DNA from: Thermoanaerobaculia bacterium
GTDB lineage: Bacteria > Acidobacteriota > Thermoanaerobaculia > Gp7-AA8
DNA: 64,000 bases
Assembly: GCA_035626775.1 (NCBI GenBank)
Contig: DASPNA010000078.1
Coordinates: forward strand, 42,771 to 106,770
Direction: 5' to 3'
This document shows, piece by piece, positions 420 through 60,423 of the stretch. Position numbers and translations under genes: made by a program. Positions within the stretch are counted from its first letter, which is position 1. Every line of letters begins with the position of its first letter. The notes beneath the pieces were generated by a model. The model saw nothing but the letters and a program-made list of their open reading frames with translations, made no database searches and had not been told where the DNA came from.

Positions 420-1414
420 TGATGAAGGTCGCTCTCATCGGCAGCGTCAGTTTCTCGCGCCATACGCTGGAGCGACTCATCGCCCACAAAGCGGACATCG
501 TAGGCGTTCTCGGTCTCGATGAATCGGCGTCCGAAGGCGTGAGCGACTACAGCAACCTCGAGACAACCGCAAAGGTTGCCGGCGTGCCGTATCGGTCGTT
601 CAAGCGCATCAATACCGATGAGGTTCTCGCGCAGCTCAGAGCGTGGGCGCCGGATGTTCTCTTCGTGGTCGGCTTGTCGCAGATGGTGAGCGACGACATC
701 CGCGCCGTTGCGTCCCGCGGCTCGATCGGTTTCCATCCGACGCGATTGCCGGAAGGCCGCGGGCGCGCGCCTGTGGCGTGGCTGACATGGGATGCGAAGC
801 CCGGCGCGGCAACGTTTTTCGAGCTCGAGAGCGAAGCCGACGCGGGAGGGATCTTTGTACAGGAGCCGTTCGACGTCGCTGACGGTAGCTACGCCGACGA
901 GACCATCGCGGCCGTTCGTGCCGCCATCGACCGCGCGCTCGATCGCTGGCTGCCAGACCTGCTGAAAGGCACCTGGAATCCAATTGCTCAGGATCATACG
1001 CAGGCGTCGTTCTGGGGCAAGCGCGCGGCAGAAGACGGATGGATCGACTGGTCGAAGCCGGCGACAGATATTGCGCGGCTCATTCGCACCGCCGGCCATC
1101 CATATCCGGGCGCCTACACCTATCACCGCGGGCGAAAGCTCATGATCTGGCGCGGCCGAGTGGTCGATCTGCCGCTGCGCGGGGTCATCGGCCGCATCTT
1201 GCAGGTCAATGAGCTCAATCACTTCGTCGTCCAGACCGGAGAGGGACTGTTGGAAGTCGAATCACACTCGATGGCCGGTACACCGGCAGCGAAATTAGCC
1301 GTCGGACAGCGGCTGGGATTCGTGGTCGAGGACGAAATCGCGCGGCTGCACGAACGCTTGTCGGCGCTCGAGCAGCGGCTCGCGCTCATCGAGAAGAGCA
1401 GCCCTGGTCAATGA
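419..1414 (+). CDS. Formyltransferase-family protein (Fmt/ArnA N-domain-like)
   Basis: N-terminal MKVALIGS plus GFHPTRLPEGRGRAPVAW, resembling the formyltransferase HPSLLP-RG motif. ATG overlaps the upstream TAA as TAATG. Confidence 0.75.
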   Translation: MMKVALIGSVSFSRHTLERLIAHKADIVGVLGLDESASEGVSDYSNLETTAKVAGVPYRSFKRINTDEVLAQLRAWAPDVLFVVGLSQMVSDDIRAVASRGSIGFHPTRLPEGRGRAPVAWLTWDAKPGAATFFELESEADAGGIFVQEPFDVADGSYADETIAAVRAAIDRALDRWLPDLLKGTWNPIAQDHTQASFWGKRAAEDGWIDWSKPATDIARLIRTAGHPYPGAYTYHRGRKLMIWRGRVVDLPLRGVIGRILQVNELNHFVVQTGEGLLEVESHSMAGTPAAKLAVGQRLGFVVEDEIARLHERLSALEQRLALIEKSSPGQ

Positions 1415-1672
1415 AGCGAGCGCGATGCAGTCGCGCAGGTAACGATCGGTGATCTCGACGTCTGGAACATCGCGTGGCTTCAGCGCGCCTCGGTAACAGA
1501 GAATGCGCAGATAGAGAAACGCGGCGCCGCGATGTTCCTCCGTCTTCAAAAACTTTCGCGCCGCCGAGCGAAGCGTGCGGTCGCTCACGCTTCCTGTGCG
1601 AATGGCCTCCGCGAGATTCTCACGTGCCTTTTGAAGATCACCCGCCACGAATCGTTGATGCGATTGCTTCAA
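1295..1672 (-). CDS. Hypothetical protein (weak)
   Basis: ATG forms an ATGA 4-nt overlap with the stop of the upstream ORF 1669..2010. However, the 3' end overlaps the convergent formyltransferase by about 120 nt. Confidence 0.25.
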   Translation of the reverse strand: MKQSHQRFVAGDLQKARENLAEAIRTGSVSDRTLRSAARKFLKTEEHRGAAFLYLRILCYRGALKPRDVPDVEITDRYLRDCIALASLTRAALLDEREPLLERRQAFVQPRDFVLDHESQPLSDG

Positions 1673-2010
1673 TAGAGTTTTGACACGCGCGCGGCGCTGC
1701 GCATCGCGCGCGCGCCGATTGTGCGGGCGCGACGGCGCCGTTCCAGACGCGCCTCATCTTCGATCGGATAGAAAGCCGCATCCAGCACTGCCGTTCCATA
1801 AGTCTGCAAACGCCGCTGGTTCCGCCGGATCCGATCGTGCAGCTCGGCATATTCAGTTGGCCGCGCCTCACCTTTCGACAAAAGCGCTCGCATGGAGCTG
1901 AGCGATCGCAACTGCAGGCTGACGTCATCCACGTGCTGCACGAGCGCCCACGCCGTCCATGATCCATCGACGCCCACGTCGCTGATGGATGGCCGGACGA
2001 GCTCGCGCAT
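1669..2010 (-). CDS. Hypothetical protein, possibly DinB-like
   Basis: ORF reads MRELVRPSISDVGVDGSWTAWALVQHVDDV... It is in the same frame as ORF 2047..2337, separated only by a single TGA. Confidence 0.35.
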   Translation of the reverse strand: MRELVRPSISDVGVDGSWTAWALVQHVDDVSLQLRSLSSMRALLSKGEARPTEYAELHDRIRRNQRRLQTYGTAVLDAAFYPIEDEARLERRRRARTIGARAMRSAARVSKLY

Positions 2011-2046
2011 CCGCTCTCGTTGTGTGTGTCGATGCGATCGATCGCT

Positions 2047-2337
2047 TCATAGAGAGGCGCGAGCTGCGGCGAGTCCCATGGGGACATTCAACGCTTTCTG
2101 CTGGTGGGCGAGTTTCGTCCGCGCCGCCTGATCGGCGGACCACATCGAGAGAAGCGCGCGCCGCAACGCCGGCTTCCGCAGCCGCGATTCATGATCTATG
2201 TGCGTCCGAAGGACTCGAAGTCGGGATCGCTCGAGGCCTCCATGGTGAAACGCGCCGCCGCGGGGACGTCGGCCGCTGCAGTCGCGCGCGAGGCGTCGTA
2301 GGCGGCGCATCCCAGGTGCGAACGACGGTGGCCGCAA
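2047..2337 (-). CDS. Hypothetical protein; possibly the N-terminal part of an interrupted gene
   Basis: Same frame as 1669..2010. TGA at 2047-2049, then 12 codons before the next Met. Confidence 0.25.
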   Translation of the reverse strand: MRPPSFAPGMRRLRRLARDCSGRRPRGGAFHHGGLERSRLRVLRTHIDHESRLRKPALRRALLSMWSADQAARTKLAHQQKALNVPMGLAAARASL

Positions 2338-2431
2338 GGAGAAGTACCGCGAGCATGGCCGGGATCGTAACGCTCGGGAAGAAGACGGGATGGAAACTTT
2401 CAGTTAGCTCGGGCTGCACCGCGTCCGACCT

Positions 2432-2842
2432 TCAGGTTGGCAAGGCCCGGGTCGCCGCCTGGAAACCTTCAACCGCGCGCCAACTGGCGGCAAGGAAGCA
2501 AAGGATGGACGCGAGTCCACCGAGCACGGTGACGACGAACATCGCGTTCGACGACCGATGCCAGTCGACGCTGCTCAGACAGTTCGTCAGGAAGATCGTG
2601 CCGTACGCGAGCACGGCGAAGAACGTACCGTAGATGAAGAACTGCAACGCCGAGACGAGCACATGGACGCTGTCGCGCGGCAGCGTCCCTTTCTCCCACA
2701 GATGACCGATGAAGGTCAGGAACGCGACGGTCGCCCCGCCGTTCATGGTGAGCAAAGCGCGAAGTGCAGCCTGCCCGCTGCTGACGACCGTCTCGTACTT
2801 TTTTAGCGGATGAACGTGCGTGACGGTTTCCGGTGTCGACAT
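2432..2842 (-). CDS. Small integral membrane protein
   Basis: Three to four hydrophobic helices (…ATVAFLTFIGHLW…, …FFIYGTFFAVLAYGTIFL…, …VVTVLGGLASILCFLAASW…). Confidence 0.5.
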   Translation of the reverse strand: MSTPETVTHVHPLKKYETVVSSGQAALRALLTMNGGATVAFLTFIGHLWEKGTLPRDSVHVLVSALQFFIYGTFFAVLAYGTIFLTNCLSSVDWHRSSNAMFVVTVLGGLASILCFLAASWRAVEGFQAATRALPT

Positions 2843-2910
2843 GGGGCGCCTCCGCCAAGGTAGTGACCCGTGCGGCGGCCGCGTTTCATCGCACGGCTAT
2901 ACTCAAGACA

Positions 2911-3137
2911 TGGCGCGCTCGAAACTGGCCGAACAACTCCGGCAGGAACAGGCCGCCGCGATCGCGGGGCTGACGCCGCAGGAACGCCTCGACCTCGCGT
3001 TCGAGCTCGGCCGGCGCGGCATCGAGATGTACATGAGCGCGCACCACGTCGACCGCGAGACCGCCGCCCGCGAACTGAAACGCGCCGGCCGGGCCGGGCG
3101 ACGCTACTCGCGTTGCATGGACGACGAGACGCCGTGA
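2911..3137 (+). CDS. Small protein, putative antitoxin-like partner of the downstream nucleotidyltransferase
   Basis: ORF reads MARSKLAEQLRQEQAAAIAGLTPQERLDLAFELGRRGIEMY... Its stop TGA (3135-3137) overlaps GTG 3134 of the next ORF as GTGA, suggesting translational coupling. Confidence 0.4.
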
Positions 3138-3600
3138 ACGCGATCGTGGTACGCGAAATCCTCGATCGCGCAAACATCCAGTTTGCGCTGATCGGCGCGG
3201 CTGCCGTGGCATTGCGTGGCCTGCCGCGCTTCACGCAGGACACCGACTTCTTCACCACGGACCGGCGCGTCCTTCAGCGTGATTTGTGGGACGTCCGATC
3301 AGGTCGATGTCGTCGTCGGCAAGTACAAGTGGGAGCAGCAGCTCCTCGCGCGCGCGGAGCGAATGGATTTGTTCGGCGCATCCGTGCTCGTTCCAGCACG
3401 AAGCGATCTCATTCTGATGAAACTCGCCGCCGGCGGCTACAAAGACCTGATCGACGCGGCCGGTCTGCTGTCGCTTGGGCCACGCGATGAATTGATTGCA
3501 GACGTGGCTTCGCGGATCGGCGACCTGTCCCGCGAAGCGCAGGCAAGCTGGCTCACCTTCTTCGCGAAACGAAGTAACTCAGGCCGGAAAACAGTCGACT
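3134..3600 (+). pseudogene. Pol-beta-superfamily nucleotidyltransferase, frameshifted near 3300
   Basis: Frame 2 reads VNAIVVREILDRANIQFALIGAAAVALRGLPRFTQDTDFFT (G-x-DxD NTase motif). The sequence continues in frame 0 as DQVDVVVGKYKWEQQLLARAERMDLFGASVLVPARSDLILMKLAAGGYKDLID. A single extra base near tcaGgtcgatg breaks the frame. The true 3' end is unclear. Confidence 0.5.
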
Positions 3601-3642
3601 CAACGAGCACAGCCCGCAATGGGCGACGCATATACTCGACGC

Positions 3643-4671
3643 ATGATGCGTCGGAAGTCCACCGCGACAGTCCTTTTCCTCGGGTTTCTCCTATCCGAAA
3701 CGGTGACTGGACAGGAACGACAGCTTCAGCAGGATCTCGCGCCGCTCGAGAAACGCGTGCGCGCCCTCGAGCAGCTTCTGCGGGACGCACCGGAACGTTT
3801 CGTCACGGAATCATTGGAGTTGTCGGCCGCATATCACGAAGCGGCAAAGCGCCACGCGAAGGTCACGCAAAGCGCCGGCGCGCGAAGCGACGCAGTGACA
3901 ATCCTGATACGCGCAGCGTTCGCGACGCGACAGATCCTTCGTCAACCGGAGCGAGCCCTCGATCTCTATCGCCGCGCCGCGGCACTGCATGCGGAACGAT
4001 ATCCTTCCGCGCGCGAGGCGGCGTTCCGGGACGAGATCGCGGACATCCAGCAGTTTGACCTTCGTGACCATGCAGCCGCAGCGAACACCCTCGAGCGGCT
4101 TCGCGAGTTCGAGAAGGCTCACGCGACCAATCAGGGAGAGATGGCGGGATGGAGTGCCTGGAGGGCGCAATGGCTGGACGCGGAGATCACGTATCTCCGT
4201 TCGAAGAAGGCATTCGCCGGCACCGTCAATGCCGCCGCGATGACCGGATTGATCGCACAGATCTATTACGGTGCGGGCACTGTCGGCTCTGTCCCGCTCG
4301 ACCCAGCGTTGAACATTTACAGTGAGACGTCGTTGTCACCCGCCGAGATCGAAACGAAGCTGGCGGCGCTTCCCGCATCACACACGACATTCCTCCAGAC
4401 TTGGATGTTCGCCACCAAATTACCCACGCCGGCCGCCGCACAGAAGTGGTTGACCCGTAATGACCCGGCCGGCTATTGGAGCGCGTCGCTCCTCACTCTG
4501 GCAGCGGTTGCGGAACGCGATCTCGACGCGTCTGCGGACCCGAAGTCCAATGTCGTGGCCAGTCTGATCCGTACGGAATCCAGGAAGCCAACGGCGTTCG
4601 CGCTACTGGCACGCCAATACGCGAAAACGCGTCGCCTGCCGCCGCCGATGCAGTTGAATATCGGTCATTGA
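3643..4671 (+). CDS. Secreted or periplasmic hypothetical protein
   Basis: ATG 3643 followed by MMRRKSTATVLFLGFLLSETVTGQ, a signal-peptide-like N-terminus, in a long open frame. Confidence 0.55.
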   Translation: MMRRKSTATVLFLGFLLSETVTGQERQLQQDLAPLEKRVRALEQLLRDAPERFVTESLELSAAYHEAAKRHAKVTQSAGARSDAVTILIRAAFATRQILRQPERALDLYRRAAALHAERYPSAREAAFRDEIADIQQFDLRDHAAAANTLERLREFEKAHATNQGEMAGWSAWRAQWLDAEITYLRSKKAFAGTVNAAAMTGLIAQIYYGAGTVGSVPLDPALNIYSETSLSPAEIETKLAALPASHTTFLQTWMFATKLPTPAAAQKWLTRNDPAGYWSASLLTLAAVAERDLDASADPKSNVVASLIRTESRKPTAFALLARQYAKTRRLPPPMQLNIGH

Positions 4672-4704
4672 GCGGCGACGGTCACTCAGCCGTTCACATA
4701 AAGA

Positions 4705-4724
4705 GGGCGGCCTTGCGGCCGCCC
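4705..4724. terminator. GC hairpin between convergent genes
   Basis: GGGCGGCC-ttgc-GGCCGCCC. On the minus strand it is followed by a TCTTTATGT stretch, downstream of nrdJ. Confidence 0.35.
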
Positions 4725-4748
4725 TCGCTGTCGTGCATGACGTCAAGA

Positions 4749-7616
<2,868 letters not shown>

Positions 7617-10444: not shown

Positions 10445-10460
10445 CGACGAATGTTACTGC

Positions 10461-10571
10461 GACCCCTCATCCGCCTTCGGCACCTTGTCCCCTCGCCGAG
10501 GGGAGAAGGCTACCCAGGTAGCCCTCGCCCCGCTTGCGGGGAGAGGGTGGCCAAAGGCCGGGTGAGGGGTC
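10461..10571. repeat. Palindromic element family 4 (GACCCCTCATCCG ... CGGGTGAGGGGTC terminal inverted repeats)
   Basis: Terminal inverted repeats GACCCCTCA/TGAGGGGTC, with internal hairpins CCCCTCGCCGAGGGG and CCCCGCTTGCGGGG. Related copies at 27237-27342 and 57204-57294. Confidence 0.7.
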
Positions 10572-10592
10572 GCTCTCAGCCCGTCGCTCCAG
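10569..10592. repeat. Half copy of palindromic element family 3; forms the 3' end of the CreD-like CDS
   Basis: gtcgctctcagcccgtcgctccag. On the minus strand it encodes ...SGATG plus the stop TGA of the CreD-like gene. Confidence 0.65.
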
Positions 10593-20914: not shown

Positions 20915-21103
20915 ATCGATCCACGTTTTCGCAACACGCTCCGTATCTACAGCACGATGCAGATGCGCGTCTCGGTCGCGGTAGGCAACGTCACGATTCT
21001 CGTCGAGCACCTCACGGTCCCGTTGCCGATCCAGACGTGGGCGTTCATTACCGTCGCCAACAACGAAACGCAGGCGATCTCCACGATCACGCCGCAGCCG
21101 TAA
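20915..21103 (+). pseudogene. C-terminal fragment of a third IPT-paralog copy
   Basis: IDPRFRNTLRIYST...WAFITVANNETQAISTITPQP* matches the C-termini of the two downstream paralogs. It is followed by the same GGAGAAGA-ttcgATG junction. Confidence 0.5.
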
Positions 21104-21117
21104 CGGAGAAGAATTCG

Positions 21118-22113
21118 ATGCGATTCACGATCAAGCTCACGCTCCTGACGCTGCTCGCGACGTTGCCGCTCGCGGCGCAAACGAGCTACACCATCACTCC
21201 GGACAACGGTCCCACCTCCGGCGGCACACACGTCACGATCAAGGGCGACTTCGGCCAATGGCCGTATAGCGTGGACTTCGGCGACATCTCTGTGCCCGCG
21301 ACTCGCGTTGATGAGCACACGTTGACGGCGATCACGCCGCCGCACATGCCGGGCCGAGTCGACGTCGTGATCTTCGAGTACGACATCGGCATCACGACCG
21401 ATCTCACGTTCGAGTACATCGGGACCATGCCGGATGACTATGCACGGTTGCTTCTTCCGGTGTTTACGCCGGCCGTGCACGGCGCGTTCGGCTCGATCTT
21501 CGTCAGCGACCTGCGCGTGCTCAATTACGGAGGCATGTCGGCATCGATCCACGGCCTGGTGGCGGATTGTGCGCCGGTGATTTGCATCCCCTCCGAAGGT
21601 CCGTACGACCTCAGCCCGGGATCGGAAACGACGAACTTCGTCCCGAATGGCAATCCCGGCCGATTCGTGTACGTGAAGAAGGACCAGGCCGTGGGGCTGG
21701 CGATGAATCTGCGCGTATACGACACGACACGCGAGGCGCTCAACTTCGGCACCGAGATCCCGATCGTGCGCGAAGACGAGATGCCGCTGAACCGCGTCGT
21801 CTTCACGGGCGTCCCGACCGACCCGCGTTTTCGAAACACTTTGCGCATCTATTCGACGTTCCCATTCACGGCGATCGTCACCGTGGGCAATCGCGCGCCG
21901 GTACGCGTGCGGATGTTGGACACGACCGGGATCTACGATCCGTCTTACGCGATCTTCGGTGACTTTCCGGCGGACGGAAATCCCGTGCGCGTGACGATCG
22001 ATGCGGAGCTCGACTTCCAGACGCTGCTGCCGGTCGACGTACCGATCTGGGCGATGATCACGGTCACGAATAACGAAACGCAGATGATCTCGACGATCAC
22101 TCCGCAACCGTAA
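21118..22113 (+). CDS. Secreted IPT/TIG-domain protein, paralog 1
   Basis: Signal peptide MRFTIKLTLLTLLATLPLAAQ, then ITPDNGPTSGGTHVTIKG (IPT-like). About 90% identical to the next gene. Confidence 0.8.
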   Translation: MRFTIKLTLLTLLATLPLAAQTSYTITPDNGPTSGGTHVTIKGDFGQWPYSVDFGDISVPATRVDEHTLTAITPPHMPGRVDVVIFEYDIGITTDLTFEYIGTMPDDYARLLLPVFTPAVHGAFGSIFVSDLRVLNYGGMSASIHGLVADCAPVICIPSEGPYDLSPGSETTNFVPNGNPGRFVYVKKDQAVGLAMNLRVYDTTREALNFGTEIPIVREDEMPLNRVVFTGVPTDPRFRNTLRIYSTFPFTAIVTVGNRAPVRVRMLDTTGIYDPSYAIFGDFPADGNPVRVTIDAELDFQTLLPVDVPIWAMITVTNNETQMISTITPQP

Positions 22114-22127
22114 TGGAGAAGATTTCG

Positions 22128-23123
22128 ATGCGACTTACGCTCAAGCTCACGTTCCTGGTGCTGCTCGCGACATCGCCACTCGCGGCGCAAACGAACTACA
22201 CGATCACTCCGGACAACGGTCCCACCTCAGGCGGCACACACGTCACCATCAAGGGCGACTTCGGCCAATGGCCGTATGGCGTGATCTTCGGCGGCGTCTC
22301 TGTGCCCGCGACGCGCGTCGATGAGCACACGTTGACCGCAGTCACGCCGCCGCACATGCCCGGCAAGGTGGAGGTCGTCATCTTCGAGTTCGACATCGGC
22401 ATCAACACCGATCTCACGTTCGACTACATCGGGCCGGTCCCGGATGACTACGCACGGTTGCTCCTGCCGGTATTCACGCCGCCGGTGCACGGCGCGTTCG
22501 GCTCGCTGTTCTTCAGCAATCTGCGCGTACTGAACTACGGAGGCGCGACAGCATCGATCTACGGGCTCGAAATGGTCTGCGCGCCGATCCTCTGCATCCC
22601 GTTCGAAGGTCCGTTCGACCTCGGCCCCGGCTCAGAATCGACGGACTTCGTCCCGAACGGCAATCCCGGCCGCTTCGTGTACGTGAAGAAGGATCAGGCC
22701 GTGGGGCTGGCGATGAATTTACGCGTGTACGACACGACGCGCGAAGCGCTCAACTTCGGCACCGAGATCCCGATCGTGCGCGAGGAGGAGATGCCGCTGA
22801 ACCGCGTCGTCTTCACGGGCGTCCCGACCGATCCGCGTTTTCGCAACACGCTGCGCATCTATTCGACGTTCCCATTCACGGCGATCGTGACGATCGGAAA
22901 TCGACCGCCGGTGCGCGTGCGGATGTCGGACACCAACGGCATTCACGATCCGTCGTACGCCCAGTTCGGCGACTTTCCGACCGACGGCAATCCAGTACGC
23001 GTGACGATCGACGCGGAGCTCGACTTCCAGACGCTGCTGCCGGTCGACGTACCGATCTGGGCGATGATCACGGTCACGAACAACGAAACGCAGATGATCT
23101 CGACGATCACGCCGCAACCGTGA
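22128..23123 (+). CDS. Secreted IPT/TIG-domain protein, paralog 2
   Basis: MRLTLKLTFLVLLATSPLAAQ...; tandem duplicate of 21118..22113. An alternative ATG at 22113 would overlap as TAATG. Confidence 0.8.
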   Translation: MRLTLKLTFLVLLATSPLAAQTNYTITPDNGPTSGGTHVTIKGDFGQWPYGVIFGGVSVPATRVDEHTLTAVTPPHMPGKVEVVIFEFDIGINTDLTFDYIGPVPDDYARLLLPVFTPPVHGAFGSLFFSNLRVLNYGGATASIYGLEMVCAPILCIPFEGPFDLGPGSESTDFVPNGNPGRFVYVKKDQAVGLAMNLRVYDTTREALNFGTEIPIVREEEMPLNRVVFTGVPTDPRFRNTLRIYSTFPFTAIVTIGNRPPVRVRMSDTNGIHDPSYAQFGDFPTDGNPVRVTIDAELDFQTLLPVDVPIWAMITVTNNETQMISTITPQP

Positions 23124-23220
23124 CGAGGGGTCCCTCGGGTTCCTCGGTTCCTCGGGTTCCTCGGTGGGATAGGTTGCCCAATCGCCCACCCCGAGGAACC
23201 CGAGGAACCCCGAGGAACCG
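23124..23220. repeat. Palindromic element family 1
   Basis: gaggggtccctcgggttcctcggttcctcgggttcctcgg ... ccgaggaacccgaggaaccccgaggaaccg, between convergent genes. Confidence 0.75.
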
Positions 23221-25553: not shown

Positions 25554-27232
25554 TGCGCCGTAGTGTAGCCGAGCGTCGATGATGCGGCCGCGGACGCAAC
25601 GCGCGTGGGCAGCGATACCGTGATCGAGCTGCCCGCGCCTTCGCTCGACGTCACGTCGATCTTCCCTCCATGCTCCTGCACGATGCGATACGAGATGGCC
25701 ATGCCCAGGCCGGTGCCGGTGGGAAAGTTCGTGCGGAAGGGCTGGAAGAGGCGGCGCAGATCGGCTTGCGACATGCCGCGGCCGTTGTCGGAGAACGTGA
25801 TGCGATACGAGCCGTCGACGACAGTCGTGCGGACGGTGAGCACACCACCTTGCGGCATGGCCTGCACCGCGTTGCGCGCCAGGTTCCAGAACACCTGGCG
25901 GATCTGGTCGGCATCGCCGACGAGATGGAACGACGGCGGATCGATGTCGCGGCGGATCTCATGATTGCGATGGAGCTCGGGCGAGTTCTGCAAAAGATCG
26001 AGCGTTTCGGAAAGGTTGGCTGCGACGTCGTACTCCAGCGCGCGTTTTTCCTGCGGACGGACGAAGCGGAGAAAGTCGGAGATCGATTTATTCAACCGCT
26101 CCGATTCTTTCAGCACGATCGACATGAGGCGCTGTTCCTGCGCGGTCAGTGACGTCGATCCTTTGAGCACTTGCACCGATCCTGCGATGGCGGCGAGCGG
26201 ATTTCGGATCTCGTGCGCGATGCCGGCGGACAGCTCGCCCACCGCGGCCATCCTGTCCTTGAGGCGAAGCTCGGCCTCGAGCTTCTTCATCTCGGTGAGG
26301 TCCTGAAAGATGAGCGTGTAGCCCGCGGCAGCACCTTCCAGCGTGCTGAGTGGACTGACCGCGAAGCCGATGTTTCGCGCCGCGCCGGCCACGGTCACGT
26401 CGTCGATCTCCTTGCGCACGACGACACCCGCCGCGAGCTCTTCCCGTGCCTCGTTCCAGTGGTCCATGTCCAGAAAACCGAGCTCCGTCACGTGCCGGCC
26501 GAGAATCGCTTGCGGTTCCATCTGCAGGATCTGCGAGCCGGCGGGATTCACGAACGATGCGGTGCCGAACGACGAGAGCGTGATGAGGCCGGACGGGATC
26601 GATTCGACGACGTTCTGATTGAGCGCGCGGAGCTCGGCGAGGTTCTGGCGATTCGCATCGAGCTCGCGCGCGGTGCGCTGCAATTGTTCGGAGAGATACG
26701 ACGTGAGCAGCGCGGTCGCGTAGAAGCCGAGGAAGTTCGCGGCCATGTTGAAGTAGAGGCGCGAGGCGGACCAGTCGATCTCCAGCGACTGCGACTGCGC
26801 GGGCATCGGCAGCACGCGGTAGTAGAGAAGGTCGACCAGAACGCCGTAAAGGATCACCGCGCCCGATGCGGCGAGCAAACCGCCGCGCCGATAGAGCAGC
26901 ATCGACGCGGTGATGATCGAGACGAGATAGAGAAACGAGAACGGGGAATCGAGTCCGCCGGTAAAGTAGACCAGTAGTGTCTCGACGAGCAGATCGCCGG
27001 CGATCTGGATCATCACGTTCACGGCGCGCGACGGGACCGTAAAAGCGAGCCCGATGTAGAGGAGCGTGAGCGCGTACGTCACGCCGGCGGCGATGTAGAG
27101 GTAGTCGATGGGCAGGACTTCGCCGACCGTGTATTGAATGATGAGCGCGGCCAGCAGCAGCGTGGTGACGACGACCACGCGGACCGCGATGAGCATGCGG
27201 GTGTCGCTGGACATGGTCGGCACGCGACTCAT
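25550..27232 (-). CDS. Sensor histidine kinase (N-terminal TM region, PAS, HisKA, HATPase)
   Basis: [11 protein letters not shown]-box plus a G-x-G-L-G ATPase block. ATG at 27232. 4-nt overlap with ruvB. The extension to 27310 in the ORF track is repeat-derived. Confidence 0.85.
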
Positions 27233-27236
27233 GGTA

Positions 27237-27342
27237 ACCCTCGCCCCGCTTGCGGGGAGAGGGTGGCGCGCAGCGCCGGGTGAGGGGGACCCCTCATCCG
27301 CCTGCGGCACCTTCTCCCCTCGCGGAGGGGAGAAGGCTACCT
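27237..27342. repeat. Palindromic element family 4, permuted or tandem-partial arrangement
   Basis: ccctcgccccgcttgcggggagagggtggc...ccgggtgaggggg acccctcatccgcctgcggcaccttctcccctcgcggaggggagaaggctac. Confidence 0.7.
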
Positions 27343-28571: not shown

Positions 28572-28637
28572 CTGGAGCGACGGGCTCTCAGCCCGTCGAG
28601 CCCTGCATTTCGACGGGCCGAGAGCCCGTCGCTCCAG
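28572..28637. repeat. Palindromic element family 3, full copy
   Basis: ctggagcgacgggctctcagcccgtcg agccctgcatttcga cgggccgagagcccgtcgctccag. Confidence 0.75.
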
Positions 28638-29779: not shown

Positions 29780-29815
29780 TGGTCCTGTCTCTCCAGTGCT
29801 ACATGCTTCGCGAGT

Positions 29816-29918
29816 GGAAATTGAAAATTGAAAATTGAAAATTGAAAAATCGGACTCCGGGTCGCGCGAGGCACCGACTTTCGTTTTTTCAATTTTCAAT
29901 TTTCAATTTTCAATTTCG
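29816..29918. repeat. AT-rich palindrome, (GAAAATT)x4 ... (CAATTTT)x4, family 5
   Basis: ggaaattgaaaattgaaaattgaaaattgaaaaatcgg ... ccgactttcgttttttcaattttcaattttcaattttcaatttcg. A stem of about 33 bp, between pilB and pilT. Confidence 0.8.
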
Positions 29919-32490: not shown

Positions 32491-33407
32491 TCCGCGGTGA
32501 CCCTTCCCAGCATCGTCATCACCTCTTCAACACTTATCGAGTCCATCCATTTCGTGGTGGAAAAACGGTCGATGCAATGTTGCAGTTGGTGATACGGACC
32601 GTTGCGCCGTGGATTGGTCGGGCCGTAGAGGCCGATGACCTTCGTCCCGAGCGCGTCCGCGAGGTGCAGCGGGCCGGTGTCGCCGCCGATGACGACCTCT
32701 GCACTTTGGAGCAGACCTGCAAGCTCACGCAGGTTCGTCGACGGCGCGATACGAGCTCCGATCGCTTCCGCGAGCTCCCGTTCTCCCGGCCCCCACGCCG
32801 CGACCGCGCGCGGACCGATGCGCTTTGCGAGCTCGCGAAAACGCTCGACGGGCCACAGTTTGTTGGCCTTTCCGGCACCCGGGAGCAGGACGATGGAGTT
32901 TTCATAGCCAGGAACCGGAACCGCGAAATCGTCCCAATTCTGGAGCGACGGGCTCTCAGCCCGTCGGGTCTCGAGGTCGACCGGCTGAGAGCCCGTCGCT
33001 CCAGATGCGAGCTGCAGGTTTTGATCGATGACGTGCGACGCCGCATCGACACGTACGTGGCGGTTCGTGAACAGGAGCGCGGCTTTCTCGCGGATGGCGT
33101 GGCGATCGAATCCGTATCGCGTTTTCGCACCTGACAACCATCCGAGCGCCGCCGATTTGATCAGTCCCTGAAAGTCGACAGATGCATCGAAGCCGCGCGC
33201 GCTGCGAATCGCGCGAATGGCAGCTCGCGGTTCTTTCTTCATGCGCACCGGCAGCACCTCCACACCCGCGACGATCTCCACGAGCTCGCGATACGGCGCT
33301 TCGACGACCCACGTGACGTCCGCCGCGTTCTTGAGCGACACGACCGCGGGGATGGTGTGAATGACGTCGCCGAGTGCTGACAGACGAAGGACGAGCAGAC
33401 GGCTCAT
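32487..33407 (-). CDS. Glycosyltransferase family 9 (ADP-heptose:LPS heptosyltransferase-like)
   Basis: [22 protein letters not shown]...[24 protein letters not shown] (GT9 signature). ATGA overlap with hldC at 33404-33407. Contains an in-frame family-3 repeat. Confidence 0.8.
32940..33004. repeat. Palindromic element family 3, full copy embedded in-frame within the GT9 CDS
   Basis: ctggagcgacgggctctcagcccgtcg ggtctcgaggtcgac cggctgagagcccgtcgctccag. Translated on the minus strand as [21 protein letters not shown]. Confidence 0.75.
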
Positions 33408-48224: not shown

Positions 48225-49280
48225 TCAGGCGATCCGAGAACGAGCCTCGACACGCCGCGGATCGCCGGCGTTGCCTTTTTGTAACCCCGCGAACGCGATC
48301 ATGGCCGCGTTGTCGGTGCAATAGCGCTTCTCCGGCAGGCGCACCACCACGCCGCGATGCTCGCCCCACGCGAGCATCCGCTCGCGGATGACTCCGTTGG
48401 CCGCCACACCGCCTGCAAGCGCCACCGCTTCGGGCTTCTCCCCTTCCAACCGCTGCCATATCGAATCGAGGCGATCGAAGAGTTGCGCGACGAGCGCTTC
48501 CTGAAAGGTCGCGCAGAAATCCTGGAACAACGGGCTCTCGGCCCATTCCGGATTTTCGTCGGGCTGAGAGCCCGTCGTTCCAGCCTGGATGGCGTGCTCG
48601 CGCGCGAGCCGGATCGCACCCGCTTTCAGGCCGCTATACGAAAAGTCCAACGACTCGTCGCGGAACTGCGGCACGACGAACGGGAACCGCTTCGCATCGA
48701 CCTTGCCGGCGCGTCCGTGTTTTTCGATCTCCGGCCCTCCGGGATACGGCAGGCCAATGAACTTCGCGACTTTGTCGAAGGTCTCGCCGATCGCATCATC
48801 GCGCGTGCGATTGAGCTGGCGGATGTCGCTGCCGCGCACGTCGTAGATCGCGGAGTGGCCACCGGAGATCACGAGCGAGAGAAAGCGCGCCGGCAACGGC
48901 AGCGCCGCTCCTTCGCGTTGCAGAAAAGGCGAGTAGATGTGACCTTCGAGATGATTGACGGGCATCAGCGGAATGCCCAATCCGTACGCGAGTCCCTGCG
49001 CGCCGGCCACGCCGACGAGCAACGCGCCGATCAATCCCGGACCCGACGTCACCGCAATCGAGTCGACGTCACTCCATTGCGCATTCGCGTCACCAAGCGC
49101 GCGCTCGACGAGCGGAAACAGATGCTGCAGATGCTCGCGCGACGCGATCTCCGGCACCACGCCGCCGAACGGCTGATGCCGCGCGATCTGCGAGTTGATC
49201 AGGTTCACGCGCACGTTCCCGTCGCGCTCGAGCAGAGCGACGGAAGTCTCGTCGCAGGACGTTTCGATTCCGAGGATCAC
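48225..49280 (-). CDS. tsaD: tRNA N6-adenosine threonylcarbamoyltransferase
   Basis: MILGIETSCDETSVAL..., HLEGH and GGVAAN motifs. Confidence 0.9.
   Translation of the reverse strand: MILGIETSCDETSVALLERDGNVRVNLINSQIARHQPFGGVVPEIASREHLQHLFPLVERALGDANAQWSDVDSIAVTSGPGLIGALLVGVAGAQGLAYGLGIPLMPVNHLEGHIYSPFLQREGAALPLPARFLSLVISGGHSAIYDVRGSDIRQLNRTRDDAIGETFDKVAKFIGLPYPGGPEIEKHGRAGKVDAKRFPFVVPQFRDESLDFSYSGLKAGAIRLAREHAIQAGTTGSQPDENPEWAESPLFQDFCATFQEALVAQLFDRLDSIWQRLEGEKPEAVALAGGVAANGVIRERMLAWGEHRGVVVRLPEKRYCTDNAAMIAFAGLQKGNAGDPRRVEARSRIA
48557..48583. repeat. Half copy of palindromic element family 3, in-frame inside tsaD
   Basis: cgtcgggctgagagcccgtcgttccag, translated as ...TTGSQPDENPEWAESPLFQ... 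Confidence 0.65.
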
Positions 49281-49328
49281 TCGCGCGGTAACGCGCGTCG
49301 GGCGGCGGAACGTTCCCGGCGCCGGGCG

Positions 49329-49477
49329 CAGAGTCTCAGAGTCTCAGAGTCTCAGAGGGTCGGTGGGACTCGCCGTTTTCAGAGCGGAGCAATCCGCGTT
49401 ACCGGAAATTCAGAGAAACGCCCGTCCCCACGACCCTCTGAGACTCTGAGACTCTGAGACTCTGAGACTCTGAGACT
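49329..49477. repeat. Palindromic element family 2, large copy
   Basis: (cagagtct)x3-4 gagggtcggtgggac ... gtccccacgaccctc (tgagactc)x4. Confidence 0.8.
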
Positions 49478-49533
49478 TCACGCAACGATCCGCACGCGTC
49501 CATTCGCGCGACGCTCCGAGCACGCGCCCTATA

Positions 49534-57202: not shown

Positions 57203-57203
57203 T

Positions 57204-57294
57204 CCCCTCATCCGGCGCCTTCGGCCACCTTCGCCCCGCGCCGCGGGGCGAAGGCTACGAGGCGCGTGCCAAGGTGCCGAAGGCGGATGAGGGG
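57204..57294. repeat. Palindromic element family 4, compact variant
   Basis: cccctcatccg gcgccttcggccaccttcgccccgcgccgcggggcgaaggctac ... cggatgagggg. Confidence 0.7.
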
Positions 57295-57298
57295 TGTG

Positions 57299-60299: not shown

Positions 60300-60325
60300 A
60301 ATCGGCGCGGTATATCACACGGAGG

Positions 60326-60423
60326 GAGTTCCTCGGGTTCCTCGGTTCCTCGGAGGGGAACGCGATGTGATGCTCCTCCCCTCCGAGGGACCCGAGGTAC
60401 TCCGAGGAACCCGAGGAACTCAC
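60326..60423. repeat. Palindromic element family 1
   Basis: gagttcctcgggttcctcggttcctcggaggggaa ... ccctccgagggacccgaggtactccgaggaacccgaggaactc. Confidence 0.75.

Follow-up and report, generated by a model that had tools for sequence, protein, structure and literature searches.

BoxC, PIT and TMECO elements

Elements of the BoxC/PIT/TMECO kind have been known for about 30 years, and neither their function nor their mode of spread has been established. BoxC is said to go back to Bachellier et al. in the 1990s, and PIT elements were reportedly described by Hoyne/Maher in 2000. All three names refer to one intrastrand triplex motif (Holder et al. 2015, NAR 43:10126, PMC4666352), a class II purine-motif intrastrand triplex with the pattern 5'-CCCTCNCCC-N3-6-GGGNGAGGG-N3-GGGNGAGGG-3' and 3,610 occurrences in 262 proteobacterial genomes (PMC4666352). 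The isolated G-rich strand from E. coli forms a very stable class II triplex by CD and NMR (Tm, 70-82 C), and the E. coli relative arrests polymerases in vitro (PMC4666352). In E. coli, the triplex was undetected in duplex DNA and by in vivo DMS footprinting (PMC4666352). TMECO are always intergenic, no transposase was found near any of them, their loci vary between strains more than control spacers do, and inverted pairs in E. coli invariably join a type A with a type B unit (PMC4666352). Among the publications searched, Holder et al. alone treat the motif (PMC4666352), and a literal sequence search of the literature returned unrelated primer and eukaryotic matches only. Both published motif searches limited loops to 1-6 or 0-10 nt (PMC4666352); if the variant described below is real, the family is therefore much larger and taxonomically broader than has been visible.

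Three intergenic loci built from a ~55-nt unit

The window, by which we mean the whole 64-kb stretch of DNA analyzed, is ordinary core chromosome with genes for class II RNR, ValRS, TsaD, Lon, NrdR, RuvB, and type IV pili, among others. Its Lon and PilC proteins are identical to NCBI entries from a "Thermoanaerobaculia bacterium" MAG (Acidobacteriota), the assembly with HYC60501.1 and HYC60475.1. The window carries three intergenic loci: A (10461-10571), between CreD-like and DUF2157 genes; B (27233-27341), between PilC (T2SSF) and PilS-like kinase genes; and C (57203-57295), between BioY and Lon genes, where the element occupies the entire 96-nt gap separating two stop codons. A sequence-only reading had described three ~100-bp elements with inverted termini and internal hairpins at these places, and the loci are indeed real, intergenic, and a dispersed family of palindromic, REP-like repeats, with the hairpins CCCCTCGCCGAGGGG and CCCCGCTTGCGGGG present. 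Other details of that reading need amending. The motif GGGGAGAAGGCTAC, thought to be common to the three copies, occurs in A and B and is missing from C, which has GGGGCGAAGGCTAC; the right end of A, given as CGGATGAGGGGTC, actually reads CGGGTGAGGGGTC; and alignment of the six arms gives a repeat unit of ~55 nt instead of ~100 bp.

Loci A, B, and C together comprise five full copies and one fragment of this unit. Its C-rich strand reads CCCCTCAYCC-G-[GC mini-hairpin]-CA-CCYTCTCCCC-loop-GGGGAGARGG-CTACC, and its G-rich strand reads 5'-(GGTAG)-CCYTCNCCCC-loop-GGGGAGARGG-[TG + GC mini-hairpin + C]-GGRTGAGGGG-3'. The unit comes in a T flavour (CATCC / CCTTC / GAAGG) and a C flavour (CACCC / CCCTC / GAGGG), and both complete pairs (A and B) consist of one T-flavour and one C-flavour unit. 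The order is tail-to-tail in locus A, head-to-head in locus B, and a full unit plus a fragment in locus C. The features are as follows.

Locus A, left unit: 10461-10514, plus strand (plus is the C-rich strand), T flavour, HMM E = 6.8e-16
A left, head CCCCTCATCC: 10463-10472, plus strand
A left, linker mini-hairpin GCCTTCGGCA: 10473-10482, plus strand
A left, Y arm CCTTGTCCCC: 10483-10492, plus strand, with the loop at 10493-10499
A left, R arm GGGGAGAAGG: 10500-10509, plus strand, with the tail CTACC at 10510-10514
Locus A, right unit: 10517-10571, minus strand (plus is the G-rich strand), C flavour, HMM E = 4.6e-15
A right, sequence: GGTAG-CCCTCGCCCC-GCTTGC-GGGGAGAGGG-TGGCCAAAGGCC-GGGTGAGGGG
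A right, tail: 10517-10521
A right, arms: 10522-10531 and 10538-10547
A right, linker hairpin: 10548-10559
A right, third domain: 10560-10569
Locus B, left unit: 27233-27289, minus strand (plus is the G-rich strand), C flavour, HMM E = 1.5e-12
B left, tail GGTAA: 27233-27237
B left, arms: 27238-27247 and 27254-27263
B left, linker hairpin TGGCGCGCAGCGCC: 27264-27277
B left, third domain GGGTGAGGGG: 27278-27287
Locus B, right unit: 27288-27341, plus strand, T flavour, HMM E = 1.7e-16
B right, head: 27290-27299
B right, linker GCCTGCGGCA: 27300-27309
B right, Y arm CCTTCTCCCC: 27310-27319, with the loop at 27320-27326
B right, R arm GGGGAGAAGG: 27327-27336, with the tail CTACC at 27337-27341
Locus C, left unit: 57203-57259, plus strand, T flavour, HMM E = 2.8e-14
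C left, head: 57204-57213
C left, linker hairpin GGCGCCTTCGGCCA: 57214-57227
C left, Y arm CCTTCGCCCC: 57228-57237, with the loop at 57238-57244
C left, R arm GGGGCGAAGG: 57245-57254, with the tail CTACG at 57255-57259
Locus C, right unit: 57262-57295, minus strand, truncated inverted unit of 34 nt, HMM E = 8.7e-07

Several lines of evidence set these loci apart from the rest of the window. With at most one mismatch, CCCCTCATCCG is found at 7 places, a number not attained in any of 100 shuffles (expectation, 1.75 +/- 1.37), and 6 of the 7 matches lie inside loci A, B, and C. A repeat search of the window grouped the three loci as one direct-repeat family (D11) and also returned a 26-nt, 100% complementary inverted match (I23) between loci A and C, where the right unit of C faces the left unit of A. 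An HMM built from the units finds the five full units (E = 1.7e-16 to 1.5e-12) and the one fragment (E = 8.7e-07) and has no further match anywhere else in the 64 kb. As single-stranded DNA, the loci fold at -45.1 (A), -42.2 (B), and -41.8 (C) kcal/mol, with z scores against shuffles of -6.8, -5.4, and -6.75, respectively. The same strain is represented by contigs in three other metagenomes; these are 99.8 to 100% identical, carry identical elements, and say nothing about empty sites. Rfam gave no gathering-level match in the window or over units in 18 loci, and the best match by E-value, skipping-rope, scored 14.5 bits against a gathering score of 36.7.

In each full unit the first two tracts form the main hairpin, of 10 to 13 bp; the first loop between the 10-nt arms is 6 to 7 nt and partly self-paired, so that the stem really amounts to 12 to 13 bp. 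All five full window units (5/5) have a linker of 10 to 14 nt that contains a GC hairpin of 3 to 5 bp. Running antiparallel to the purine arm, the third tract follows it base for base under purine-motif rules (G.G-C, A.A-T, T.A-T), with 10 of 10 triples allowed in the right unit of A and in both units of B and 9 of 10 in the left units of A and C. On the G-rich strand, the exception in the left unit of A is one C.C mismatch at position 6; in the left unit of C, a double change from T-A to G-C preserves the hairpin and breaks one triple. There the hairpin was restored at the cost of a triple, and the hairpin may thus outweigh the triplex. The left unit of B differs from the right unit of A essentially in the linker stem alone (GGCC/GGCC versus GGCGC/GCGCC), a compensatory change, and the right unit of B is 94% identical to the left unit of A. 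The truncated right unit of C retains its head, its linker, and 6 nt of the Y arm, has lost the R arm, and pairs with the head and linker of its neighbor, closing a long hairpin.

The size of ~100 bp and the inverted ends of the intergenic copies A and C would suit a classical MITE, that is, a ~100-bp non-autonomous derivative of a DDE transposon with TIRs and TSDs, and the sequence-only reading had seen MITE-like architecture here, with CCCCTCATCCG as the inverted termini of one element. These motifs prove to belong to separate ~55-nt units, whose 5' heads they form: in copy B they meet at the center (27278-27299) and are therefore internal, and single units elsewhere are one-headed. Although these "termini" are conserved between copies, they are conserved as heads. 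The same arrangement accounts for copy B, at 27237, whose halves do come in a different order, as had been noticed; rather than a circular permutation or two partial copies, it contains two whole units, and their head-to-head orientation, as opposed to tail-to-tail, explains the "swapped halves." No flanking direct repeat of 4 to 8 nt, and hence no TSD of at least 4 nt, occurs at any copy when the boundaries are varied by +/-3 nt, and neither transposases nor integrases are found among the ~45 window ORFs or called genes (Pfam scans of ORFs). Of the two outcomes that the sequence-only reading had named as refuting it, missing TSDs and unconserved termini, the first is observed. Finally, the 55-nt unit is single in most genomes among the matches listed, with hundreds of single copies elsewhere. 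The classical MITE model is effectively excluded.

Relation to TMECO, mirror head, and covariation

The window units contain the three tracts of TMECO in the same G-strand order. The 5' pyrimidine tract is CCCTCGCCCC in the right unit of A and the left unit of B and CCTTCTCCCC or CCTTCGCCCC in T-flavour units, which have one C->T change with matching changes in the other tracts. A first loop (3-6 nt in TMECO, 6 to 7 nt between the arms here) and the purine tract are likewise present (GGGGAGAGGG in the C flavour, GGGGAGAAGG in the T flavour), as is the third tract (GGGTGAGGGG and GGATGAGGGG, respectively). The published counterpart is TMECO no. 3 "B mm," CCCTCGCCCC-TTT-GGGGAGAGGG-CCG-GGGTGAGGGG (PMC4666352). 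The C-flavour G strand of the window, CCCTCGCCCC-GCTTGC-GGGGAGAGGG-(TGGCCAAAGGCC or TGGCGCGCAGCGCC)-GGGTGAGGGG, has tracts identical to it in both C-flavour units, the G.A mismatch included. Like TMECO, the units are intergenic, lack an associated transposase, vary in copy number between lineages, and form inverted pairs of two types, here the T and C flavours of loci A and B; a direct reading of the E. coli hrpB-mrcB BoxC pair shows the head-to-head order of copy B.

The differences concern the linker, the second flavour, the tail, and the host. Whereas the second loop in E. coli is exactly 3 nt (TTA or CCG), the window linker is a GC hairpin of 10 to 14 nt, which neither the published pattern nor the loop limits of the two published searches would admit. 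The second flavour (AAGG/GGAT) has A.A-T in place of one G.G-C triple, and in this species a CTACC tail is appended to the unit. The window comes from a soil Acidobacteriota MAG, and the taxonomic range of the unit goes far past the Proteobacteria from which TMECO were reported. When a window unit, a short query of low complexity, was compared by BLAST with 5,426 E. coli genomes, no match was found. In our view the units very probably belong to the BoxC/PIT/TMECO kind, as a variant with a hairpin linker. Since the tracts are short and low in complexity, their similarity to BoxC could be convergent.

The head of the unit (CCCCTCAYCC) mirrors the 5' hairpin arm, which reads CCCCTCTYCC when reversed. 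Among "unbiased" units, meaning hairpins that had played no part in locus selection, 64 of 240 have an upstream head that fits the mirror/triplex rule at 9 or more of 10 positions, compared with 2 of 240 when the flanks are shuffled. Head position 8, 5'-arm position 3, and 3'-arm position 8 vary together: among the matches listed, the combination is (T,T,A) in 111 of 143 and (C,C,G) in 30 of 143, with 2 exceptions, and in a larger set 189 of 192 units obey the three-way covariation, counts that are raw, ignore kinship, and are biased in part since the genome scan pattern fixed the head sequence. Both flavours occur within 31 of 115 loci among the matches listed, and the covariation is therefore not merely a lineage split. 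Rarer variants are also found, with head TCCCCCTTCC accompanying arm CCTTCCCCCT twice in one locus (L081), where the linkers differ, and head ACCCCCATCC accompanying arm CCTTCCCCCG in two others (L053, L109). At position 5 the covariation is inconsistent, as arms with C-G go with T in the head in 8 units (mainly Clostridia) and with C in 5.

The linker is either 2 to 5 nt long or a hairpin. Long linkers have a stem of at least 3 bp in 161 of 164 cases, against 61 of 164 after shuffling, and their stems comprise 37 different sequences with mostly triloops (TTC, TGC). A linker so varied in sequence and yet either short or hairpinned indicates that a compact turn is conserved and its sequence is not. 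Short-linker versions (TAA, TAG, CTT, and others) co-occur in other genomes carrying the unit. In unbiased units the linker is a hairpin in 24 of 25 of the T flavour, and short-linker units are of the C flavour in 27 of 28. The two flavours could be co-propagating subfamilies and not a structural constraint.

Two observations bear on which strand would fold. Among the matches listed, 187 of 192 units have A at head position 7; in the third tract, as read on the G strand, this A becomes T and gives T.A-T, which is allowed in the purine motif alone and so favors folding of the G-rich strand. In addition, where a mismatch recurs it affects the G-strand pyrimidine arm (CCCTCGCCCC) and leaves the two purine tracts untouched (9 versus 2, unbiased units). 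The same pyrimidine-arm mismatch is found in 13 of 23 E. coli TMECO (PMC4666352). Head position 7 and the placement of the mismatch thus favor the G-rich DNA strand as the strand that would fold. G.T wobbles seemed to be in excess on the G strand (34 to 2), but this was set aside as a selection artifact, the ratio in unbiased units being ~12 to 5.

An intrastrand triple helix requires just the features seen here, namely mirror symmetry, a tight turn, and three-way covariation, and on these comparative grounds we lean slightly toward a G-strand triplex fold as the conserved feature of the unit. In common with H-DNA mirror repeats, the unit has two pyrimidine (or purine) tracts in mirror symmetry and obeys identical triple rules, those of the purine motif. 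Unlike H-DNA, in which the duplex donates half of one strand, the duplex here would be an intrastrand hairpin, all three strands would come from one DNA strand, and the structure would be an intrastrand class II triplex (class IV on the complement). The triplex was not seen in E. coli duplex DNA or in vivo, and the fold may therefore be transient or irrelevant. If the variant is real, its natural variation, both the covariation and the interchange of loop and hairpin, would provide a comparative test for selection on the triplex fold.

Distribution, gene-end spacers, and spread

A pattern fitting all five window units matched at least 120 stretches in GTDB species representatives. The matches listed include many from Rhizobiaceae, Mesorhizobium, Ensifer, Agrobacterium, and Devosia; Thermoanaerobaculia and other Acidobacteriota; Planctomycetota (with a complete Limnoglobus genome among them); Verrucomicrobiota (with Akkermansia), Lysobacteraceae, Legionella, Crenobacter, Fimbriimonas, and Kuenenia; and several Oscillospiraceae, Intestinimonas, and other Clostridia MAGs. 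Viral contigs of IMG/VR with the unit are also among the matches listed. Neighboring units no more than 60 nt apart are inverted in 102 cases and tandem in 2 among the matches listed, a near-absolute inverted-pair rule that limits models of copying. Nearer to the window, 84 related loci totaling 473 kb (PilC 68 to 90% identical or Lon >90%) contain one further unit, which sits in the pilC-pilS spacer (L138), as does copy B. With 3 loci in 64 kb compared with this 1 unit in 473 kb, the family has expanded in this species. Together, the inverted-pair rule and the lineage expansion suggest an active process on a dimer or a folded-back strand.

The spacers in which the elements lie differ from relative to relative. 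Nearly all of 80 relatives have another strong hairpin or palindrome in the pilC-pilS spacer, and since the spacer is filled by these other palindromes there is no clean empty site among the 80. The relatives examined each have a different gene downstream of lon, and in one relative a canonical terminator behind lon takes the position of copy C. These anecdotal cases would place the elements in fast-turnover gene-end spacers, in agreement with the published local variability.

The same spacers raise the question of whether the element acts at the RNA level, its transcript hairpins serving as a 3'-end stabilizer, as a substitute for an attenuator or terminator, or as a downstream translational modulator. 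All three copies lie at gene ends, their hairpins are very stable, and the replacement hairpins between pilC and pilS and the terminator after lon would fit such a role. On either strand of loci A, B, and C, however, no hairpin is followed by the U/T-run of an intrinsic terminator. The units are found in either orientation and also as inverted pairs, Rfam contains no matching family, and PIT/TMECO have neither promoter nor terminator activity in E. coli (PMC4666352). The conserved head argues further against this reading: the A at head position 7 would be a mismatch in an RNA pyrimidine-motif triplex, and purine-motif triplexes are reported not to form in RNA, so that an RNA role would leave the head unexplained. 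For the same reason, that the head fits a DNA purine-motif triplex alone, and given the predominance of triloops, we dropped an RNA motif with UUCG/GNRA loops. We consider an RNA-level role quite unlikely; at gene ends it could come about as a secondary effect.

Mobilization in the manner of REPs and REPINs was weighed as well. Here the unit would be a non-autonomous inverted doublet, cut and copied as single-stranded DNA by a single-copy RAYT (IS200/IS605-like Y1 HUH) encoded elsewhere, and the triplex would be incidental. The units resemble REP/BIME/REPIN elements in several respects: they are short, GC-rich extragenic palindromes, inverted doublets dominate as in REPINs and BIMEs, and the expansion is lineage specific. 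On the G strand, GGTAG(CC) stands directly 5' of the main hairpin in 4 of the 5 full units (GGTAACC in the left unit of B), resembling the GTAG tag of REPs, and RAYT-like genes exist in Acidobacteria (PMC3733652). In most other taxa among the matches listed, however, the GTAG tail is missing from the unit, and the unit sequence is common to several phyla, whereas REP families are usually lineage specific. A survey of GTAG/CGTC REPs contains no matching sequence and no mention of triplexes or BoxC (PMC3733652), and no transposase lies near any TMECO (Holder et al., PMC4666352). With an approximate IS200 TnpA as the phmmer query, which is weak for RAYTs, neither the window nor ~1.4 Mb of loci yielded a Y1-like ORF, and nothing IS200-like was found among 21 candidate ORFs between two units in 2.7 Mb of loci. 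The E. coli RAYT is linked to a different REP than TMECO, and we know of no RAYT for BoxC-type units. REPs have no counterpart to the mirror-symmetric third tract of the window units, and the REP model leaves the mirror-image head and the three-way covariation unexplained. We consider it unlikely.

Our preferred explanation, which we hold to be probable, is that the loci are inverted pairs of a ~55-nt unit that is a structural variant of the BoxC/PIT/TMECO triplex-motif repeats. When replication, transcription, or repair exposes single-stranded DNA, the main hairpin and the linker hairpin would form, the latter acting as a compact turn that substitutes for the 3-nt loop, and the third tract would dock in the major groove of the main hairpin. 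An inverted pair could, in addition, form a cruciform or a three-way junction by extrusion. Polymerase pausing and local sequence turnover would be the likely outcome. The element itself probably survives as selfish or neutral DNA whose persistence depends on structure, and it occupies gene-end spacers where some hairpin is tolerated or useful.

A bolder version, to which we give little credence, would make the hairpin-linker unit one form of a pan-bacterial single-stranded DNA element whose three-stranded fold, and not its sequence, is recognized and copied, spreading as an inverted dimer in a transposase-independent or host-factor-dependent way and moving between phyla possibly on phages or prophages. 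If true, it would provide the first comparative evidence of in vivo selection on a DNA triplex; the evidence for such selection would be the three-way covariation, the linker that is 2 to 5 nt or a hairpin, and the confinement of the mismatch to the pyrimidine arm. The one kind of gene found flanked by two units is an orthologous ~215-aa phage-like gene on related rhizobial prophage contigs, and as it is not a nuclease it was discarded as a candidate.

In Rhizobium, Ensifer, and Agrobacterium loci, a T-flavour unit is often followed by an inverted C-flavour unit ~20 nt away. Annotated intergenic palindromic repeats are known from rhizobial genomes (RIME1/2, Sm-repeats, and AB/C palindromes); a link between the window unit and the rhizobial RIMEs is a guess, no more than a lead.

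The unit also matters for annotation. Peptides that the sequence-only reading had flagged as recurring in spurious ORFs do recur, PLAEGRRLP at 10489 and 27316 and PKADEG(S) at 10460 on the minus strand and 57277 on the plus strand, and the unit explains recurrent spurious ORFs of this kind (PLAEGRRLP, PLIRPSGTFSP-like peptides) in GC-rich genomes.

Further hairpin families in the window

A repeat search of the window recovered a second REPIN-like family, made up of CTGGAGCGACGGGCTCTCAGCCCGTCG inverted doublets in which either half forms a hairpin by itself (groups D13, D14, D19 and I17-I19), together with palindromes whose two arms are both built of 7- to 9-mer tandem arrays:

15733-15799, CTGGAGCGACGGGCTCTCAGCCCGTCG inverted doublet
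28572-28637, CTGGAGCGACGGGCTCTCAGCCCGTCG inverted doublet
32939-33006, CTGGAGCGACGGGCTCTCAGCCCGTCG inverted doublet
48522-48583, CTGGAGCGACGGGCTCTCAGCCCGTCG inverted doublet
10572-10592, CTGGAGCGACGGGCTCTCAGCCCGTCG family half copy, adjoining the intergenic repeat locus A
12524-12627, tandem-array palindrome, GAGTCTCA
49295-49514, tandem-array palindrome, GAGTCTCA
11857-11944, tandem-array palindrome, GGTTCCTCG
23125-23219, tandem-array palindrome, GGTTCCTCG
60323-60421, tandem-array palindrome, GGTTCCTCG
29815-29917, tandem-array palindrome, GAAAATT

The half copy beside locus A supplies the final codons and TGA stop of the CreD-like ORF (10576-11955, minus strand). An 80-bp degenerate tandem repeat (12054-12358; 3.8 copies, 75% matches) adjoins a GAGTCTCA palindrome, and three tandem copies with a 1,010-bp period at 21038-23125 (81 to 88% identity) correspond to paralogous TIG-domain genes.

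In almost every one of 80 relatives, the pilC-pilS spacer contains a different tandem-array-style element, and the lpg-nrdR spacer of the window strain (L205) has a clean insertion of ∼105 nt compared with the relatives L204, L206, and L207. The tandem-array palindromes look like a fast-evolving, lineage-wide class of spacer hairpins, one that may be more unusual than the BoxC-like repeats with their triplex motif.

Gene context of copies B and C

The gene 3′ of lon, BioY in the window (copy C region, 57203-57298), is different in each relative examined (L204, L206, and L207), where GlmS, a TIR-domain gene, and a DNA_pol_A_exo1 gene were found; copy C therefore sits at a synteny breakpoint. 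In the segment beside element B (27212-27232), the PilS-like ORF is probably annotated six codons too long, judging from where relatives start; a start placed as in those relatives would fall at ∼27214, ∼20 nt from the element. Elsewhere in the window, third-position GC bias is weaker across ∼3.3 kb (1414-4749), and the ORFs scanned there gave no Pfam matches; this segment may represent atypical or acquired DNA.

The ∼55-nt unit in other bacteria and in phage contigs

The CCTTCCCCC/GGGGGAAGG arm flavor of the BoxC-like ∼55-nt unit occurs in Clostridia MAGs (L027, L042, L052, L071, L103, and L116), where the head is unchanged (CCCTCATCC), and in Reyranellaceae (L053, L081, and L109), where the head covaries with the arms (CCCCCATCC, TCCCCCTTCC). 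Units are also densely clustered in two IMG/VR contigs labeled as (pro)phage: duplicated segments of L233 (4030-4830) hold seven within ∼700 bp, and L264 (13107-13483) carries three copies in direct orientation with a 171-nt period. In about eight related rhizobial prophage contigs, inverted units flank the same phage-like gene of ∼215 aa.
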